A stretch of DNA of 62,097 nucleotides, the filler included, from Stramenopiles sp. TOSAG23-3 (taxonomy: Eukaryota): the NCBI GenBank assembly GCA_900128585.1. It is 21 parts of 21 records of this genome, joined end to end, with 100 filler letters (N's around TTAATTAATTAA, not from the genome) between each part and the next. Parts side by side here need not be neighbours in the genome. Positions count along the whole stretch, not along the records: positions 29,793 to 32,651 come from LT644553.1; 20 more parts are not named here. One strand, 5' to 3'. The notes below the pieces were generated by a model. It did not search any database. It was not told the origin of the DNA and was given only the letters and a program-made list of their open reading frames with translations. Position numbers and translations under genes: made by a program. Shown here piece after piece: positions 11,946-59,166 of this stretch; positions within the stretch are counted from its first letter, which is position 1, and the number at the start of each line of letters is the position of its first letter.

Positions 11946-12095
11946 AAAGAAGAAGAAGAGGAAAGAAGAAGAAGAGGAAAGAAGAAGAAGAGGAAAGAAG
12001 AAGAAGAAGAGGAAAGAAGAAGAAGAAGAAGAAAAAGAAGAATGAAGAAGAAGAAGAAGGAAGAACAAGGAAGAACAAGGAAGAAGAAGGAAGAA
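11946..12095. repeat. (GAA)n-rich low-complexity tract at contig edge
   Basis: Directly visible. Confidence 0.95.
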
Positions 12096-12461
12096 AAATA
12101 AATAAAAATAAATAAATAAGAAGATCTATCTCTCACTTACTAGATTTTTCATAAAATAAGACACACACACACAAATACAACCTCGTCAAAACAGAACAAA
12201 ATGCAAGCTGCTTGCGCAAATAATGAACAATTGAAGAATTATATATAATGCTGTGATTATGTTAATGATTTTTATTAATCCGAATGAAGAAAGGAACGAA
12301 GAAAGAACGAAGAAAGAGGAGAGAGAGAGGAAGGTAGGATTAATACGGAGAGGAATGGTACCGGTACTGTATTCCCATATTCCTATATTTGATTTTTTTA
12401 TTATTGTATAGAAGTAGTGTACATAGTACCTTTTCTATATAAGCGTCGTATCCTTCGACAC

Positions 12462-14769
12462 TCACTGCGTTTGCGACCCTAGGAACAAAGCGTGCGACGT
12501 TGCAGGCGAGAGCGAAAAATAGCGGCGGTCACGAGCCAGGAGGAACTTCAAATCTTCGACCGTAATCCCATTGTCCTCCGCTTCCTCCTCCTCCTCCTCC
12601 TCCTCGCCCGCTTCCTCCTCCTCCTCCTCGCCCGCTTCCTCCTCCTCCTCCTCCTTCCCCTCTTTTTCGCTTTGCCCCACTTCTTCCCAGTCCTTTCCCT
12701 CCCCTTCTCCCTCCGCGCCGTCTATTGGTTTTGCATCCGCCTCGTTTGTGCCAGCGTTCGCTGCCCCTTCACCAGTCGTTTTCCGGGATTGAAAGGCGCC
12801 CCGGGGAATTTGAAATTCTTCATCTCTGTACAGTTTTGGGGAAGACATTTCGGCATCGCCGTCTTCGTCTACACCGTCCCTTGCCTCCCGCAACATGCTT
12901 GCAGCCAGCTCGTAGAGACTGCCGGGGCTGGATCCATCGCTGCTGGCCGACAAAACGTTTTGTTCGATGGCCCTGGCATGCGCAATGCTTACCTCAGCGC
13001 TCTTTTCGCACTGGTCAAAAAAAACCTGAGGGGTATCTTTAGTGCGTGGGACCTTTACCACACGCAGCTGGACCGGAGTTTTCTTGACATGCGACGGGGC
13101 AGAATCACGCGAGGGGACGGTAGCATTCCCTTCTGCATCGTCTAGCCCCCTCAATGGGCCATCGTCGGGCTTCTCGGAACTGAGTCGGTCCATGGTCGTT
13201 CGGCACGCCAACCGGTGGTTTCGCAACGACATCAAATCTTCCAGAACGTCCCGGACAATGTGGTCCACGGCAAAACTCATGCGACTATACGGCGACTCGT
13301 CTGCCGTGGTGGACATTGGCAGACTGATTTCTGCCCGACTTTTCCGGCACGCCCCTTCCATCAATTTGGACAAAGCGTGCACTTTGATGATGGAGAGGTT
13401 GTGCCAGTGCTTGGGCAATCGCAAGGTGTCGTTTGCAAGCTCAAAATAATGGTTCCTGGTTTCTTCCGAAGGGCTGGTTTCGTTCAACAGCTTCGTTTCC
13501 TCGCGTTCCATGTCGTCTATCGAGATGCAGTCCGGATCGTCGCCATCCACAAACGCCCTCAGGATGTCTTCGTCGTCGCTCGTTGTCCTCTCGAGGATTT
13601 TGGTCGGTAAAAAGTTGCCCGGGGGTGCCTTCGGGACATTGGGCTTTGCGGCTTTGGTTTGCTTGGGCTTGGGCTTCGAGCCGCCCACCCCAGTGGCACC
13701 GCCCGCGCCGGCCCCTCCACTGCCTCCTCCGCCCTCCCCACCCGCCCCCTTCTTGTTCTGTTGCCATATCTTCAAATCTTCTTCGTGCTGCTTCAGTTCC
13801 CGCTGCCACTGCTCGTACTCTTTCTTGTGCTTCTTAATGTAGGCTTTGACGTCCTTGTCGTATTTTTCCTGGTGCTTCTGGTGCTTTTGCTTGTACAAGT
13901 CCTTGGTCTTGTCGTTCACGTACTTCCATATTTCAACGATCATTTTCGTCTTCGTGAGCTTGTCGAAGGGCGTGGAGGCCCCCACTTTTTTCCCGTACGC
14001 CTTCAGCTGCACCTCCGTCCACTTCTTATGCTCCGCAGCAAAGAGGTTGTAGTGGTTGTTGAATTTGAGCGGGTAGTTCGGGGGTTTCCCGGGTTTTTTG
14101 GGCCGTTTCGGGTCGTCCCCGTTGGCATCTTGCGCCTTCTTCTTGCCCTTGCCCCCGGCCTTTTTCTGCTCCCCTGTCGACTTGCGACCTTTTCCGACCG
14201 CTGCCGCCTTCGCTTTCCCCGCCGCTGCCGCCTTCGCTTTCCCCGCCGCTGCCGCCTTCGCTTTCGCAGCCGCGGCGGCGGCTTTCTTCTCTTTCGCGGT
14301 CAGCTTTTTCTTGTCTGCAGCGGCTTTCTTCCCCTTCCCCGTGGCTCCCTTTTTCCGCCCTTTGGCAGCCGCCCCCTTGGCAGCCGGCGCTTTCCGTTTC
14401 TTCCCTCCTGCAGCGGCCTTTCTCTGCGCCGCCGTGGGCTTCTTCTTGGCGGCCTTGGACTGTTTTTGCTTTCCAGAGCCTCGTTGCGAAGAGGAGGAAT
14501 GTCGCAAACTCGCGTGCGCCTTGCCGATCACGTCGTCGCCGACAATTTTGAGGACTGCGGCTCGCAGATGCATAAAGGCTTGCTTCATTTCGTACGGGGT
14601 GCCTCGGGAATGCCGATCCAGTATTTGCTGGCAAATGAGTTTGTAATACTTTTCTACCTTCATCAAATGATCGGGCTTCTTAATCAGCCCCATCTGCCTC
14701 ATTTGGTACATAATTTTCTCCAGCGGCATTATTAGGTTCCGCTTTCCAATCGTGTGGCACGTCTTGCAG
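12462..14769 (-). CDS. TAF4: TAF4-like TFIID subunit with RST-like N-terminal domain and HMG box; 5' end chimeric or partial
   Basis: IMPLEK...LKIVGDDVI (RST-like); PKKP..YNLF..E...IVEIWK.V....KDLY.......Y (HMG box); MSFAVDHIVRDVLEDLMSLRNHR (TAF4 histone-fold-like); ITVEDLKFLLARD (TAF4 C-terminal conserved motif). Confidence 0.65.
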
Positions 14770-14828
14770 ACGACTGGTGAAGGGGCAGCGAACGCTGGCA
14801 CAAACGAGGCGGATGCAAAACCAATAGA
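14770..14828. repeat. 59-bp exact inverted copy of 12721..12779 at contig end
   Basis: The reverse complement of 14770..14828 equals TCTATTGG...CACCAGTCGT at 12721..12779. Confidence 0.95.
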
Positions 14829-14949
14829 NNNNNNNNNNNNNNNNNNNNNNNNNNNNNNNNNNNNNNNNNNNNTTAATTAATTAANNNNNNNNNNNNNNNN
14901 NNNNNNNNNNNNNNNNNNNNNNNNNNNNCTTGACCCGCGACGGATAAAA

Positions 14950-28029: not shown

Positions 28030-29086
28030 CGTCTACCTAAGTTTTTAGAACGGACAGGTTCAGAAACTAATTCCAAAACGAAACAAACCTCTAAAAATTA
28101 ACCTAAACCACCAAATCGATTCGTATTGACTCCGTAACTTTTCCAAAAGACAGACAAACACAAAGAAAAAGAATGATTGGAACAATGCAATTTTATCAAG
28201 CACCAAAATGTAATCATCTAGAGAACAAAATGTTTATATATTTTTAAATAAAAAAAATAATTATTTTAAAATGATCTCTCATCTCTGCTCAAATTAAGGA
28301 TATATTCATTAATATTAATTGTCGCTTTGCGCAATCAACCATTATTACTATTAATTATCGAAGCGATATTTTAATATATTCAATATCGACCGGTAAAAGC
28401 CCTTAACAGTCGAAGGGACTTTTTACTCAGTTAATGGCTTTCTCTTCTATGGTATTTCAATATAAAATGGATTTTTATTTTCCCGGACGAACTTCATTCT
28501 AAATATAGACTGTTCGTTTCAATTTAAGCTATTTATTTACAAAAATAATAATTAATTACGTAATAAATAATATATTTTCACTTCTCGAGAAAGCGGTAGT
28601 AATATTTTTAAAACACCTTAATATTATATCTATAAAACCTTATTAATAGTCCTGTCGTCTCCTCGTAGTAGTACATTATAATTGGGGTTCAATCCACTAG
28701 AATTTTCTGAAGAAGACCATAATAATAATACCGGTATTACATTGTGTTACGGTGGTGTGTGTCACGATGACAGAAAAAAGGACTAATTATTTGAAGAAGT
28801 GCGTATTATTAATTAGGATGCTGTGTTCTATTAGCTATAATAATAATAAGTGTGTTTACACGAGGATTTGTGTTGTTGTTGATGATATGAAGAAGATTAT
28901 TATAGAAAACGTATTATTATAATTTATACTACTACCGTTCTCATCTCTATGGACAATCAACGATTGCACTTCTGAAAGGTGACGGGAAATTTCCGGGATG
29001 GCGTTAGAAGAAGAAGCACAATATTCAACAAAGTCACGGAGTTAAAAGTTGAATTTATTGAACATTTCATCAAGCAAGAGATTTAA

Positions 29087-29256
29087 AAAGAAACGTTCCA
29101 GAAGACACAAGCGAGACGGCAAACAAACAGAGCACCAAAGTCCATTCCAGCTGCGCAGGCGAAGGAAGAGTTTTCAAAAGAAACGTTCCAAAAGACACAA
29201 GCGAGACAACAAACAAACAGAACACCAAAGTCCATTCCGGCTACGCAGGCGAAGGA
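29087..29256 (+). repeat. 90-bp-period tandem repeat, two copies
   Basis: AAAGAAACGTTCCA.AAGACACAAGCGAGAC...AAACAAACAGA.CACCAAAGTCCATTCC.GCT.CGCAGGCGAAGGA at about 29087 and 29177. Confidence 0.9.
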
Positions 29257-29314
29257 GACGCTTTTACGAAGGCAAATACCGTTTCCCTTTCTTGGGGTTT
29301 TACAGTGGGTTGCG

Positions 29315-29613
29315 ATGCAATTTTCCGCCAAACATGCTACGGTCCAACTAAAGACTCGGGGAGGAGAAAGTGAAGGTAATATCACAGAGTCTCTGACGAA
29401 CTTGTTCGTGGACGAGGAGGCAACTGACTTGGGCCAAGAAAACGATGAAGGCAGCGTTGAATACAAGCGAATGTTGGTCGATCCAACGCCCGAACGGTTC
29501 CAGCACTTGACCACACAAATGCAGTTTCGTCTGAATGAGGGGGAAGGGGAGTGCATATACCAGATTGGTTTTGATGACAACGGTGACGCCATAGGTATTC
29601 CGGAAGATGGAAT
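29315..29613 (+). CDS. GTP-binding protein GTPBP1/GTPBP2 family, N-terminal fragment truncated by a chimeric junction
   Basis: E..EG.VEYK..LV.P..ERFQHL.TQMQFRL.EG.GE.IYQIG..D.G...GI motif. After 29613 the sequence switches to an inverted copy of the contig start. Confidence 0.8.
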
Positions 29614-29692
29614 GAAGAAAAAGCATTTCCAGGCAAAGCAAAACAGAGTTCTCCCAAAAGTTTTGGGTACAGCGCACTGGCCAATGTTCCAC
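29614..29692. repeat. 79-bp exact inverted copy of contig start 26830..26908
   Basis: The reverse complement matches GTGGAACATTGG...GCTTTTTCTTC exactly. Confidence 0.95.
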
Positions 29693-29870
29693 NNNNNNNN
29701 NNNNNNNNNNNNNNNNNNNNNNNNNNNNNNNNNNNNTTAATTAATTAANNNNNNNNNNNNNNNNNNNNNNNNNNNNNNNNNNNNNNNNNNNNGTACTAAA
29801 CTGGAGGAACGTTGTCAGCTACTAGCACGCGTCCCTTAATTCCCAGATCTCACACCGTGATATCGTAACA

Positions 29871-29888
29871 GTTTATCAGACCCACGCG
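29871..29888 (+). promoter_or_regulatory. Putative half-tRNA primer-binding site directly after the LTR end (...TAACA)
   Basis: GTTTATCAGACCCACGCG; its reverse complement CGCG-TGGGT-CTGATAA-AC resembles a tRNA anticodon arm. It is analogous in position and form to the copia GGTTATGGGCCCAG PBS. Confidence 0.6.
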
Positions 29889-29914
29889 TCTAGATATTAA
29901 TTGAGTCAACCATT

Positions 29915-31444
29915 ATGTCTGATTCAGATTCGTCTCCAAAGAGACAGGGGAAATCCTACAAGTTTGACCCACGAAAGCCCCAGGCAGTCAAGAAGCTACT
30001 GAGTCATATCGCCATGAAGGCGAAGCGCTCCATAAAAGACTCCAACAACATGGGGAAGATTATTGCTAGTATTGCAAAAGGAAAATACGTTTCGACAAGC
30101 AAGCACGCAATCTCCGGCACGTTCGTAATTGATCTCACGGATGTCATGGCTGAAATACAATCGTCAATAAACAATTATTTGATTGCCGAATTTACTCCGG
30201 AGGACTTCATGTTAAATGCAGCAGGTCAAGTCGTAAACGACCCCGACGCTGCGGCGGTGACTCACACTACCGCCATGCGAGTTGGTAGTAGCGAACTGCT
30301 ATGGCTGAACTCTCTTGACGAGGGAGGCAAGCCAAAGTTAAAATTCAAGACGACGCTGTTTGCAGAATCGTCGCGCGCAGAACCGATTGACGCACTCTCA
30401 CAAACTTTCAAGTCGAATGATGCCAATACGAAGCAGTTAAATGTGAAATTCAAGGTGGGCGTTCCCACGCTACAGGCAACTGCTGGGTACAACTTGAAGG
30501 CGGCGAAGGTGATTACCAAGACCAAGTCGCTGGCATGCGCTACAAGGGAGGTTCTTGACAATGCGGACGAGAAGCTAGAGGGCTTGATTCATGATACGCT
30601 CTCCTCGGATCTTCGAAGTAAACTCGAGCAGCGTTTTGACCGTGCGGAAGCTGAGGATGAAGATACATCTCATCCTGGTCAGTTTTCAATTTCCTGGCTT
30701 CAAGAAAAATTCGGAGTCGCTCAGATGGAAATAATTTCACTCGTCGAAAAATACATGGAGTACCTGTCTACGGTTAAAACCTCTGATCAGAATTTGTATC
30801 AGTTCGCCTCGTCGCTCAAAGGTAAACTCGATGCCTTGCACGACTCGAAATGGAGCATGAACGATCTGTTCCTCATCCTGATTATGGCGCACACCATTAA
30901 AAGTTCTGATGTCGATGAGCGTGGCGAAAAAGTGGATTATTCCAGCATTACTGCAATGATCACTAAAGCGCTCAATGGTACCGAGCCGCTTATGCCGTAC
31001 CGAATCGTCGAAGCTTTAGAAAAGCAGGCCAAGATGGCTAAATCTGCTTTGAAACTTGTGCATGATGGCACTGCAGCTGAAGCTCTGGCTTCTACCGTTT
31101 CCAAGGGAAATAAACCCTTCGATAAAACCCCGCCCCCTGGTCTAGGCTTTGGTCCAATTGGTGAAACCCTTTGGTGCAGCTATTGTGCGAAGACAAGAGT
31201 CCACCAACGCAAGGGTTGGAATGGCTGGAACCAGCCGTCGGTAAACAGTGTAAAGGCGCACGTGCACCGTACACGTCAGGGCAAGGTCATATGCCCAATT
31301 GCGATCAAGGCGAAGAAATTAAAGAATCCAAAACCGAAAAAGGATGGTGGAAAAGAAAACAATTCTCAGTCGACTTCCGCATCGCTCGAAGCGCAAGTGG
31401 CGACGCTGACAAGTTTAGTCGCTGAACTCGTTAAGAATAAGTGA
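29915..31444 (+). CDS. gag: Retrotransposon Gag with atypical, extended CxxC...H...C knuckle
   Basis: 509-aa ORF just downstream of the PBS; WCSYC...AHVH...ICP near the C-terminus. Confidence 0.8.
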   Translation: MSDSDSSPKRQGKSYKFDPRKPQAVKKLLSHIAMKAKRSIKDSNNMGKIIASIAKGKYVSTSKHAISGTFVIDLTDVMAEIQSSINNYLIAEFTPEDFMLNAAGQVVNDPDAAAVTHTTAMRVGSSELLWLNSLDEGGKPKLKFKTTLFAESSRAEPIDALSQTFKSNDANTKQLNVKFKVGVPTLQATAGYNLKAAKVITKTKSLACATREVLDNADEKLEGLIHDTLSSDLRSKLEQRFDRAEAEDEDTSHPGQFSISWLQEKFGVAQMEIISLVEKYMEYLSTVKTSDQNLYQFASSLKGKLDALHDSKWSMNDLFLILIMAHTIKSSDVDERGEKVDYSSITAMITKALNGTEPLMPYRIVEALEKQAKMAKSALKLVHDGTAAEALASTVSKGNKPFDKTPPPGLGFGPIGETLWCSYCAKTRVHQRKGWNGWNQPSVNSVKAHVHRTRQGKVICPIAIKAKKLKNPKPKKDGGKENNSQSTSASLEAQVATLTSLVAELVKNK

Positions 31445-32651
31445 AAAGTAACCGGCGCCCTTTCAAAGGTAAAACGGATCTTTGATTCGGGCACGCAGAA
31501 ATGGTTGGAACGAACAACTGACCATTGCCATTCCGTTGAGCCGCACCGCGGCATCATCCGAGGGGTTGCCGGACAAACCGATTCCACACTTTGTGGAAAA
31601 ATAACGCTTGCTGTCCCTGGTAAAGACACAATTAGCAACGTTTGGATTGCCAATACAGGCAAATACAGTCTAGCGTGTGTATCCGCTATTGCGACTGAAT
31701 TAAAATTAAATCTCCTGTTCGATGATATAGGAGTCTACCTATTGACAACGTCAAATAAGGTTGATTATACAAAGGGCCGAATGATTGGGCAATTGAGGTG
31801 TGGGTTATATCATGTTTTCGATGATTTCCTGATCTCACAGACGACGCCGTCTGAACCGGTAAAAGATTTTTACCATTTCACCGCCAAAAATCGATGCAAA
31901 CAATATCCTTTTGGCGACGCTGCCCCGGCCCACTATAGTGGTAACCCACCATTGAAATATTCGTTTTCGGTTAATTCTTACACACCAGTAGATCCTGAGG
32001 TCCTGGTGCACAATCGTTTGGGGCATCCCTGCCAACGCTATATGCTTGAAATGATTAGGAAGAAAACGCTTCGTGGAATTGATAACTTAAAAGCACACCG
32101 TGTTACTGAGTTAATTGGTCTTGGCACCGCATGCTGCTGCATCGGTTGCATTGCAAAGAAAAATCGACAGCCAACCTCGAAGCGCACCCGTGGCAGAAAC
32201 CGCCCTCGGGAAAAACCGAAAGACGACAAACATGAAAAATTAGAGGCTACTAGGACGGTCGCAACCGACACGTTTGGCCCATTTTACGAAAACTACTATG
32301 GCATCAAATATGCCCAGGTTTTTGTGCATATCGAATCGCGAAAAGCGTGGTTATTTGGAATGAAACGGAAGTCAGATTTTCCTGTAATTCTCAAAGAATT
32401 TTTAACCACGTACCGGACCACGTATCCGGATAAGGACCCGCCCGAAATTTGCAGGTCCCAACATGTGGCTACGTTTGCCACCAACACCGATTTTACGATA
32501 CGCCTGGTACGCACCGACCGTGCACCAGAGTTTGCAACTGAAGAGGCTAGAGCCATCTACAACGAATTTGGAATACGCCACCTTCGCACCGTGGCCCACT
32601 CCAGTTGGGAAAATGGTTTTGCTGAAAGAGTAATTCAAACCATTAATAAAA
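31445..32651 (+). CDS. pol: Retrotransposon Pol (aspartic protease + integrase), in frame with gag after a single TGA; 3'-partial
   Basis: TGA AAA GTA ACC GGC GCC CTT TCA AAG GTA AAA CGG ATC TTT GAT TCG GGC ACG = *KVTGALSKVKRIFDSGT. There is no in-frame ATG before the catalytic DSG. Confidence 0.88.
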
Positions 32652-32751
32652 NNNNNNNNNNNNNNNNNNNNNNNNNNNNNNNNNNNNNNNNNNNNTTAAT
32701 TAATTAANNNNNNNNNNNNNNNNNNNNNNNNNNNNNNNNNNNNNNNNNNNN

Positions 32752-56332: not shown

Positions 56333-58798
56333 CGCCTCGGGGACGTCGACTTTTCCGTACTTTTTGTACTGGATGTCTTCCGGGTACCGGCCGTCCTTGT
56401 GCGCCCGGGACTTGGTCCGCTTTACGGAGTGGAAGTGCTTCGAGGCGCTTCGCTCGATGTACTCTTCCCCGTCCCCGAGGTCAACCGTGCACGGCTTCCC
56501 TGTCCAGTCGCACACGACCTCGTAGAACGTCTTGCTCACCTTCTTCCACGAGGACAGCGGGATGTCGGGATACCCGCTCAACACCTGTAGCGCTATGTCG
56601 CCGTCCGTTCGCCCCACGATCGTCAACGGCATGGCCGTGTCCTTGGTCAGAAACTTCTTCGCGGAAACGCCCTCGTACGATTTCGCCAGGGCCCCGTGAA
56701 AAAAACGCAAGGCCCACGTGCGCTCCAAGTTTCGCAGCAAAATGTCGTAGGCATCCTTGTTTGCGGGGACATTGCAGTTCTGAAGGGACAAAAACTCCAG
56801 CGGGCAGTTCGGGATGCTGTACGCCTTTCCCTTGTACATCACGACGCCTAGGGCGCGGGATATCGCCTTGCAGATGGAGTCGGCGTCCTTTGGGCTTTCC
56901 ACCAAATTGTTGGACAGGTCCAAGCGAACCAAGTGTTCGGCGTGCTTCACGAACTCGAAAATTTGAACGAACCCTGCCGAGTCGCTCCTCGATCGGTCGC
57001 TGGTCGTGTGCCACAGAAAGTTGCTGGACAGGTCTAGCGTTTTCAAATGCCGGTGATGGGTGCTGCGCTTCAGGATATTTCCGATCAGGACCCCGTCGCT
57101 GCACACGAGCCTGCAGCTGGAGAGATCCAGGTGCACCAAGCTGGTCGCGACAAGGTGCATGTTAATGCCCGACGAATTCAGGGTGGAGGAGAGCTTCGTG
57201 AGCACCCCGGGGTGGTGCGCCGAGCCGATGGCCTCTCCCAGCTCCGCGAACGCCTTTCCCCGCCCCCAATCGTTCCCTCCCGCCTTGAGGTAGGTGATGG
57301 AGGTGTTGTGCCTCATGAGCTTGGCCAGATGGCCCACCCCCCTCCGCTTGAACGCGTTGCCCTCCAGGTTCAGGTACGTAAGCGCCACCCTGGCCCTGAT
57401 CTTTTCCAGCACCAACAGCTCCCGATCGTGCGTGTCCTCAAGCCCCTGCTGCCTCTCTTCGAAGTGCCGCATGCGCATGTCGTGGCGCAAGTCCTCGCTC
57501 CTCGCTTTCTCTTTAATCAGACCAGACTCTTTCTTGAACGCGACGAAGATCTTGTCCTCCATCTTTCTCAAGCGATCGAGCTCTTTACTCGCGTTCTCCG
57601 GCAGTATTCTTTTCTGGTCCTCCCCCCGCTTGACCAGCCCCCGGTTCTTCGCTATGAACGCGCAATCCTCCTCGTACTTCTTGCCCAGCCGGGCCAAGAG
57701 CCGCTCGCTCCCCTCGGGGCCGAAGGCCCGGGCATGGTAGTGCTCGACCTCTTCCTCCTTTGTGGCGGTCGTCTCCTTAAAATCCCTCTCCAACTGCTCC
57801 GCCAGGCTCTTCATCGCCGTGAATCGCGTCGCGTCGACCAGGTGGCCCGTGAACTTTTTCATCGCGCCGTCCTGCAAATTCATCCTGGACAGGTCTATCG
57901 ACGTCAGCGTCCCCAGCGTTGCCAACCGCCCGATCTGGCTGCACACGACTTCCCCGTCCGCCGCGGTGGGGCATGGGTTGTAGGACAGGTCGATGGAGGT
58001 CAGCGTCCTGTTGTAGCCCAAGCACCCGACCAGCTTCAGCATTCCCGAAGCATCCGCAGTTTTGGAGACTTTGTCGGCGGCGGTGGGCAGCCTGTACCCC
58101 AAGGAGCAGTCTCGGAGGGAGAGGATGACCAATGACTCGTTGCCGGCGATGAGGGCCGCGATGGCCTCGGCGCCCTGGCACCCTATGGGGTTAACGCTAA
58201 GGTCCAACGTCTCCATCCGGTTCTTCACCCGGGCTTCGTTCACCGCCGCGGCGATGGCCCCAATCCCTATCGGCCCGATCTTGTTCTCGCGCAGGCGCAG
58301 CGCCTTCAAGTGCTCCGCGGCCGCGACGCCCCGGGCCAAGGCGACGCCGTCCGGGTCCCTCAAGTTGTTCTCGGACAGGTTGAACTCTTCTACCCCGTTG
58401 TTCGAGGCCAGGATCGCCTCCGCCACAGCCCCGCTTATTCTATTGCTTGAAAAGTTCAGCCGTTTCAGGCTCCTCTTCCTCGTCTTGAGCCCCATGATCA
58501 GGGAGGACACCAGCGTAGTGTTCTTGCTCCGTACGTTTTTCTTCTTGGTCATGGTTATCTTGTTGTTGGACAGGTCGACGGCTTCCAAGTTGGGCATCCT
58601 CGACATCGACATGAAGAACACGGACAAGTCCGTGTGCTCCCCCAAATTATTCCCGGACAGGTCGTGTATCCACCGCCCTCGATGCGAACAAAGTAGTATC
58701 CGCCGAACCAACAGACAGAGTAGGAAAGAAAGGACGGACCGTTCAACGAACAAAATGCCTTTCAAAACCAAACAAGAGCTCTCAGCGTAAAATTTCAC
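56333..58798 (-). CDS. RI-like LRR protein with central coiled-coil insert and a possible F-box-like segment near the C-terminus; 3'-partial, start uncertain
   Basis: Many LxxLDLSxNxI repeats of about 28 aa; GC-rich coding signal from about 58680 downwards. Confidence 0.85.
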
Positions 58799-59105
58799 GT
58801 TAATCTAAAACAATCTTAAGAAGAAATAAATAGTTTTAGGAAAAAAAAAGGAAATAAAAAAAGTTGTGAATAAAATATATGATTTACTCGTAGAGTTTGT
58901 TTTAGAGTAGACAATAATATATAATTATAATAATGAACTATTATTATAAATTTATTTTATTATTTTTATTTTCGGTTCGTGCTTTAGTATGCGTACGTAC
59001 ATAATACATTAATTAGGAATTAATACAACATTCTAGTCCTATATTAGACGACTTTCTATTTTTTAGTCTGTTCTCCGTTCTACGTTTTAATTATGAAGAA
59101 GTCGA

Positions 59106-59166
59106 CTTCCTTTCTTCCTTTCTTCCTTTCTTCCTTTCTTCCTTTCTTCCTTTCTTCCTTTCTTCC
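59106..59166. repeat. (CTTCCTTT)n 8-bp tandem repeat at contig edge
   Basis: Directly visible. Confidence 0.95.

Follow-up and report, generated by a model that had tools for sequence, protein, structure and literature searches.

Among Ty1/copia-type retrotransposons, most of which encode gag-pol in one open reading frame (ORF), the closest described counterparts of the locus reported here are Tca2 (pCal) of Candida albicans (PMC2194720) and VdLTRE5 of Verticillium dahliae (PMC3441728), in both of which gag and pol are arranged as gag-UGA-pol. The shared frame of Tca2 and the organization of VdLTRE5, called very rare by its authors, have both been interpreted as readthrough (PMC2194720; PMC3441728). 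In Moloney murine leukemia virus (MLV; gag-UAG-pol) and at the UGA codons of alphaviruses and plant viruses, an in-frame stop is followed 7-12 nucleotides (nt) downstream by a structure that raises readthrough (PMC3159437; PMC2194720). Among protists, the CoDi (copia from diatoms) elements of Phaeodactylum and Thalassiosira are of the Ty1/copia type, with the order protease (PR), integrase (IN), reverse transcriptase (RT) and RNase H (RH), and the available portion of PMC2806351 claims neither programmed readthrough nor a signal for it. Our search of the literature on long terminal repeat (LTR) retrotransposons of diatoms likewise found no paper describing programmed gag readthrough. Here, we examine a gag-UGA-pol junction in a window of 62,097 bases (the whole stretch analysed) from Stramenopiles sp. 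TOSAG23-3, in which the piece at 29793-32651 is best read as the 5' half of a Ty1/copia-type element comprising a leader, gag, protease and most of the integrase. An earlier note on this DNA had proposed a readthrough-regulated copia lineage in a protist and had named Tca2 as the known copia case. Tca2 is indeed organized as gag-UGA-pol, but that list was incomplete, as VdLTRE5 shares the arrangement (PMC3441728).

From 29894 onward, a single frame is interrupted by just one TGA before the piece ends, and the features of the element fall along it as follows.

29793-32651, no strand assigned: contig piece with the element fragment, with an artificial N44-TTAATTAATTAA-N44 linker on either side
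29915-31444, plus strand: gag ORF, 509 codons and the TGA, with a helical core, a C-terminal Cys/His motif, a basic tail and a helix
31175-31294, plus strand: Cys/His-rich motif of gag (CSYCAKTRVH...HVHRTRQGKVIC), a pattern that recurs in relatives
31442-31444, plus strand: in-frame UGA between gag and pol, a candidate recoding site and the sole stop among the 912 codons of the element's frame
31445-32651, plus strand: 5' part of pol, with 402 codons and no stop before the contig piece ends
31484-31492, plus strand: protease catalytic motif D-S-G, at residues 524-526 when the UGA is read through
32009-32149, plus strand: N-terminal zinc finger of the integrase, H-x4-H...C-x2-C (HNRLGH...CIGC), invariant in the eight aligned pols
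32264-32629, plus strand: integrase catalytic core, D785, D868 and E904, with 35 residues between D868 and E904

The end of gag at AAG TGA is confirmed in both its coordinates and its preceding codon, as is the continuation of the same frame past the TGA, which reads KVTGALSKVKRIFDSGT. The DSG motif had been placed 14 codons past the stop without an intervening ATG, and this also holds: the aspartate is the 14th codon, and the 13 codons between the stop and the motif (511-523) include no ATG, GTG, TTG, CTG or ACG. The first in-frame ATG after the stop lies at 31781-83, 113 codons downstream and past the DSG, and a conventional AUG-initiated pol product would therefore be without the protease active site. 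Because the protease active site is upstream of the usable starts, it is most likely that Pol is made by ribosomes that initiated at the gag AUG and went on past the UGA. The claim that both ORFs are otherwise uninterrupted stands in full for the 509 codons of gag, but the openness of pol is demonstrated for 402 codons only, as the piece ends inside the integrase at 32651. The reading of this junction as a bypassed stop thus starts from 509 open codons before a single TGA and at least 402 after it.

The evidence that this stop has persisted comes from relatives. A word-indexed search returned eight of them (P0002-P0009), and when 1.84 billion representatives were searched by phmmer with the read-through product, 65 hits passed E<=0.001, a number small enough to mark the family as divergent. 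Six gag-type relatives, with identities of 43-84%, reach the Cys/His motif, and five of the six end 4-8 residues past an LVxEL-like motif. The gag here ends in ...LVAELVKNK*, and the ends of the relatives are ...LVAELAKANN in P0009 (a 510-aa gag of 84% identity), ...LVAELVKSNK in P0067 and P0076, ...LVTELSKKV in P0022 and ...ALVKKGVHL in P0051; the sixth, P0013, ends earlier, right after the GWNGWNQ motif. Since the residues ahead of the stop differ among these relatives, the stop appears to have been retained as they diverged. Among the pols, three begin precisely at the first TTG past the stop (residue 531): P0002, an intact pol of 1222 aa, and P0011 and P0018, both decayed fragments. P0018 and the gag-type P0067 may come from a single contig of 7755 nt. 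Seven more diverged pols (P0003-P0008 and P0012) begin 10-75 residues past the stop position: P0004 begins MWIFDSGS, and P0003, P0005-P0008 and P0012 begin 20-75 residues past it. The ATG of P0004 may be a gene caller's choice or an alternative pol start in that lineage. At the place of this ATG (equivalent to 31472-31495), the element in the window reads AAA CGG (K R).

None of the aligned pol-type relatives reaches into gag, and no protein spanning the junction (across residue 510) is found among the eight word-indexed hits, the 65 phmmer hits or four short hits. A further search for fused gag-pol proteins of 1,597-4,560 aa gave no hits among 7,998 scored candidates, which is weak evidence by that search's own rating. 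The representative search is able to detect fusions, as it recovered two distant copia polyproteins, P0056 and P0058, which carry Retrotran_gag_2, zf-CCHC, Pol_BBD and rve in one ORF, along with RVT_2 in P0058. The earlier note had held that a sense codon at this place in other copies would undo its proposal; at the protein level, the place of the stop is kept and none of the relatives is fused. No further copy of the element occurs in the other pieces of the window by blastn or tblastn, and 17 pattern matches in prokaryotic genome contigs yielded no confirmed relative. From these comparisons, we regard the stop as very probably a conserved feature of the family.

Since the relatives keep the stop, the enzymes of the element are probably made by occasional readthrough. 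We lean slightly toward a conserved gag-stop-pol junction that is bypassed, most likely by readthrough of the UGA. Under this scheme, most ribosomes would terminate at the UGA and release Gag, while a small fraction would decode it with a near-cognate tRNA to give a Gag-PR-IN-RT-RH fusion, which would then be cleaved by the protease. Gag would in this way be kept in the large excess over Pol on which retroelements depend. Decoding by a near-cognate tRNA, which has also been assumed for Tca2 and VdLTRE5, would be the simplest route. Of the proposed readthrough-regulated lineage, the shared frame, the single UGA and the persistence of the stop are thus borne out, and we infer translational readthrough as the bypass, together with any contribution of the RNA structure that follows the stop. 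That structure, either a hairpin 12 nt downstream or a larger domain 7 nt downstream, may raise the readthrough rate and is a candidate only. Its parts are listed below.

31445-31456, plus strand: spacer of 12 nt between the stop and the hairpin, AAAGTAACCGGC
31457-31492, plus strand: hairpin, made up of a lower stem of 4 bp, an internal loop of 2/3 nt, an upper stem of 8 bp that includes one G-U pair, and a loop of 7 nt
31452-31572, plus strand: predicted three-way domain, closed by CCGGC/GCCGG, in the minimum free energy (MFE) structure of the 251-nt context
31533-31537, plus strand: CCGTT, proposed pseudoknot partner of AACGG in the loop, present at chance frequency

The arms of the hairpin lie exactly where they had been described (GCCC at 31457-60 with GGGC at 31489-92, and TCAAAGGT at 31463-70 with ATCTTTGA at 31478-85, around the loop AAAACGG), and the described fold is the MFE structure in 51-, 101- and 251-nt contexts. 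In the 251-nt context, pairing probabilities are 0.78-0.96 for the upper stem and ~0.52 for the lower stem. The three-way domain begins 7 nt past the stop with a closing stem at 31452-56/31568-72 and, beside the junction hairpin, is predicted to contain a second hairpin of 9 bp (31500-31526) as well as a third arm. With its 12-nt spacer and 12 bp in total, the hairpin falls within the range of proven readthrough stimulators, which have stems of 10-12 bp or more and spacers of 7-12 nt (PMC3159437). Relative to shuffled sequences, z is -1.14 in the 101-nt context and -1.90 in the 251-nt context (10 of 200 shuffles as good). An equally stable window follows one of 28 other long-ORF stops, or two of 28 with a variable offset, in a control that is not like-for-like because the flanks there are probably untranslated. 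As for the pseudoknot that had been proposed between AACGG and CCGTT, the partner is present at 31533-37, but the pairing is at chance level, with a complement of a 5-nt loop segment found within 68 nt in 7% of 20,000 shuffles and in 24% of 5,877 real 68-nt windows, and CCGTT belongs to another helix in the MFE structure. A role for the pseudoknot is hardly to be expected.

The resemblance to the described systems is one of layout. Tca2 is likewise of the copia type, with a shared gag/pol frame, one UGA, a short spacer and a predicted RNA structure, but its spacer is 8 nt and purine-rich and its structure a bulged-stem pseudoknot (PMC2194720), in contrast to the 12-nt spacer, plain interrupted hairpin and chance pseudoknot pairing observed here. 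Its host is a fungus, whereas the host here is probably a diatom-type protist, and the two are likened by layout and not by phylogeny. Because the local Tca2 junction did not confer readthrough in Saccharomyces cerevisiae, it is not a proven mechanistic model (PMC2194720). VdLTRE5 shares both the gag-UGA-pol order and the absence of a CARYYA motif (PMC3441728); it is again fungal, known from two copies and likened by layout only, and no downstream structure is described for it in the available text of PMC3441728. The structures of MLV, alphaviruses and plant viruses are backed by covariation, synonymous-site conservation and mutagenesis, whereas the one here is a predicted fold only, and the viral contexts are usually UAG-G or UGA-C rather than the UGA-A of this junction (PMC3159437; PMC2194720).

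A number of observations weigh against UGA readthrough at this junction. The stop context, AAG-UGA-AAA-GUA, matches neither CARYYA nor the UGA-C leaky contexts, those being the contexts named in the available portions of PMC2194720 and PMC3441728, and the hexamer TGAAAA also closes two ordinary long ORFs in other pieces. In the 51-nt context, the hairpin has an MFE of -14.8 kcal/mol with z = -1.35 (18 of 200 shuffles as good), and comparison with other windows places it among the most stable 7.3% within its own piece (937 windows) and the most stable 6.5% over all pieces (19,689 windows). Because the conserved IFDSG is encoded by the 3' arm, conservation of that arm would by itself prove nothing. 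The copy in the window is incomplete at the contig end, which leaves its own integrity unproven, and the relatives compared are predicted proteins, seen at the protein level only. Two of them, P0011 and P0018 (92-93% identity), match for ~85-135 residues and then give way to unrelated sequence, which means that the family includes decayed or frameshifted copies beside intact ones. The genetic-code control given below presumes one source organism, yet the pieces differ in GC content, from 0.38 to 0.55. Finally, 300 nt around the UGA of Tca2, including its predicted pseudoknot, gave background readthrough of 0.3% in S. cerevisiae, and its authors termed the bypass non-canonical while Pol still followed the LTR promoter (PMC2194720); this background level tempers our confidence in readthrough here. 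As a readthrough signal, the proposed hairpin is suitable in geometry and unremarkable in stability (z = -1.35, top ~7%). That this hairpin stimulates readthrough is possible but doubtful, and it is unlikely that the hairpin or the three-way domain constitutes a dedicated signal for structure-stimulated UGA readthrough in the absence of the classical leaky contexts.

Several other explanations of the junction have to be weighed. A stop that is real and conserved might instead be bypassed by inefficient splicing that takes out the UGA, by remote cis signals or by a host-specific factor, which we consider rather improbable. The authors of the Tca2 study discussed splicing, remote signals and trans factors after finding its junction to be without readthrough (PMC2194720), and a non-local bypass would also fit a hairpin without statistical support and a stop without a leaky hexamer. 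As for splicing, 18 in-frame GT..AG pairs span the stop and end before the DSG, but none of the 18 has a strong donor, and just two acceptors lie ahead of the DSG, one of them directly before a TAA. The candidates of 36-72 nt are moreover very short, the longer ones delete the conserved C-terminus of gag, and the long unbroken ORFs in other pieces suggest an intron-poor genome. It is quite unlikely that pol is translated alone, whether an internal promoter or transcript is used or initiation occurs internally or at a non-AUG codon just past the stop. P0004 (61% identity), with its ATG four codons before the catalytic Asp, and the minor promoter activity at the Tca2 junction (PMC2194720) speak for such a start. 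However, the codons from the stop to the DSG offer neither ATG nor GTG, TTG, CTG or ACG, the first ATG being past the active site, and the methionine of P0004 is perhaps just the gene caller's first ATG after that protein's own stop. Expression of Tca2 Pol, in addition, tracked the LTR promoter and not the junction promoter, and a free Pol would, as PMC2194720 infers, need a route into particles.

We hold it to be very unlikely that the TGA is a disabling mutation without function in a dead copy or a dead subfamily. In-frame stops are frequent in newly inserted retrotransposon copies (PMC9744471), the copy here is incomplete and the break-off of P0011 and P0018 is of the kind expected from decay, but relatives of 43-84% identity have their stop at the matching position, and the residues ahead of it vary (KNK, KANN, KSNK and KKV). 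It is also the one stop in 912 codons, P0002 (1222-aa pol) and P0009 (510-aa gag) are otherwise intact and no fused relative was found in any protein search. UGA is reassigned in some protists, and if the host read TGA as a sense codon, gag-pol would be an ordinary single ORF. The high share of long ORFs ending in TGA would agree with this: the 21 pieces have 29 stop-to-stop ORFs of at least 250 aa, of which 14 are closed by TGA, 11 by TAA and four by TAG. After the 13 other TGAs, however, the frame closes again within 4-104 codons, mostly fewer than 45, as compared with at least 402 open codons after the gag TGA. TGA is thus a normal stop in the other pieces. The element frame itself has 10 TGG codons, one TGA, no TAA and no TAG, so that all 10 of its Trp codons are TGG, and the predicted proteins of the relatives also stop at this place. 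As TGA ends long ORFs and Trp in the element is always TGG, a reassigned code is unlikely if the pieces come from one organism, and we regard sense decoding as extremely improbable. Readthrough of the UGA, at a stop position conserved in the family, accordingly remains the explanation that we prefer.

The assignment to the copia type, made in the earlier note, is upheld by the order of domains and by the relatives. In the window, the protease DSG is followed by the HHCC finger and then by the D,D35E core, so that PR precedes IN. The motifs TDTFGP, DRAPE and AER of the core are invariant in the pol alignment, and IFDSG is also present in P0004. Pfam matches on pol are gag_pre-integrs (E 5e-5), which spans the zinc-finger region of the integrase, and rve (E 0.05), both short of the curated cut-offs. 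The element is cut inside the integrase, and the piece has no RT, RNase H or LTRs. P0002, whose N-terminal part is 95% identical to the pol here, contains gag_pre-integrs as well and continues into SH3_retrovirus, RVT_2 (E 1.2e-38) and an RNase H-like end, ...GDLFTKPL. P0002-P0008 carry an RVT_2-type RT, PF07727, with P0003-P0008 being pols of 889-1,244 aa and 47-73% identity that all have PF07727. By comparison of these sequences, the element is a Ty1/copia-type LTR retrotransposon, a class assignment that follows from the domain order together with the RVT_2 of the relatives, as the window itself displays PR-IN only and the RT type is known through the relatives only.

An AlphaFold2 (AF2) model of the junction and protease (170 aa, with the TGA as W) had a mean predicted local distance difference test score (pLDDT) of 47 and was uninformative. 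We also considered a protease fold that would need residues from before the stop, and this idea was dropped, as Pol_BBD seems to begin ~4 residues before the DSG, a start inferred from the P0021 hit and from P0058.

The gag begins with MSDSD, a start that is also used by P0009. Pfam gave no match of gag to a gag family or to zf-CCHC, and a match to zf-nanos was weak (E 0.04). The pattern C-x2-C...H...GWxGWNQ...H...C is found again in P0009, P0013, P0022, P0051 and P0076, and its recurrence suggests that the Cys/His motif is probably a non-canonical zinc-binding nucleocapsid motif. An AF2 model of gag, built with an 18-sequence alignment, has a mean pLDDT of 66 and a confident helical core at ~residues 210-380. 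Against the PDB, its top-probability matches are Gag-derived capsids, namely PNMA2 8uyo (probability 0.96, E 0.047), 8rb3 (probability 0.94) and MOAP1 capsid (CA)-like 7lgc (probability 0.69), all of which fall short of E<=0.001; the model thus lends weak support to a capsid-like fold. In the ESM-Atlas, the proteins resembling gag are hypothetical, 386-420 aa long and stand-alone, and the few taxon records on them are mostly Bacillariophyta (scores 0.93-0.94). These diatom labels are a lead to a diatom-type host and not proof of one; the stramenopile host named in the earlier note is compatible with this sole taxon lead, and by the same labels the family is probably diatom-type. They are also the sole lead to a possible placement of the element among the CoDi lineages.

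Ahead of the gag ATG, the leader covers 122 nt (29793-29914) with no definable LTR boundary, and it contains TATCAGA, which we take to be a partial resemblance to the tRNA-iMet-type primer binding sites of copia elements. The steadiest 51-nt windows of the piece are inside gag (30225-30340), reaching -21.3 kcal/mol and so exceeding the junction hairpin, and stronger gag-internal hairpins are located at 30225-30297. A separate protein, P0046 (280 aa), has a calponin-homology domain at residues 86-188 (E 5e-22), and its C-terminal 72 residues are 49% identical to gag residues 26-97 (~29990-30205); chimerism in the gene model or the capture of part of gag could account for this.

The window as a whole consists of 21 separate contig pieces of 2,831-2,892 bp, sorted by falling length and joined by N44-TTAATTAATTAA-N44 linkers (for example, at 29693-29792 and 32652-32751). 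As a concatenation of 21 unrelated contigs, it does not allow features to be linked across pieces. The element sits in piece 11 (29793-32651; 2,859 bp, GC 0.468), and the spread of GC content from 0.38 to 0.55 makes a mixed origin of the pieces possible. A tRNA scan of the whole window detected no tRNA, an Rfam search of the element's piece at E<=1 matched no family, and Pfam assigned ordinary eukaryotic domains to 12 host ORFs. The taxon returned by an Atlas search with the NatB subunit was no finer than Eukaryota. Piece 10 contains a 90-nt unit in 2.1 repeats with a 90% match (29072-29256), around which several frames are open on both strands (29046-29744). Pieces 5 (11946-14828) and 20 (56333-59166) are the GC-richest, at 0.52 and 0.55, and both have long overlapping ORFs on opposite strands, such as 12462-14876 on the minus strand (804 aa) over 13611-14735 on the plus strand (374 aa); piece 20 encodes leucine-rich repeats (LRRs).

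Gag-stop-pol organization has been described as very rare (PMC3441728), and the mechanism of bypass is unresolved in Tca2, the best-studied case (PMC2194720). The layout reported here is thus a rare one with precedents, and what this locus chiefly adds is the conservation of the stop across its family. Judging by the predicted relatives, gene callers break such elements up, labelling gag a "hypothetical protein" and starting pol at an arbitrary downstream codon. In a protist lineage that includes transformable model species, a family that keeps its stop would provide a second, independent system for the study of the copia Gag:Pol ratio. If a local cis signal does operate at this junction, it would be the first to explain the bypass of a copia-type gag-pol stop, which was not shown for Tca2, and a signal that acts through RNA structure would give a first handle on recoding in diatoms. 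The same family would reveal whether diatoms support programmed readthrough.

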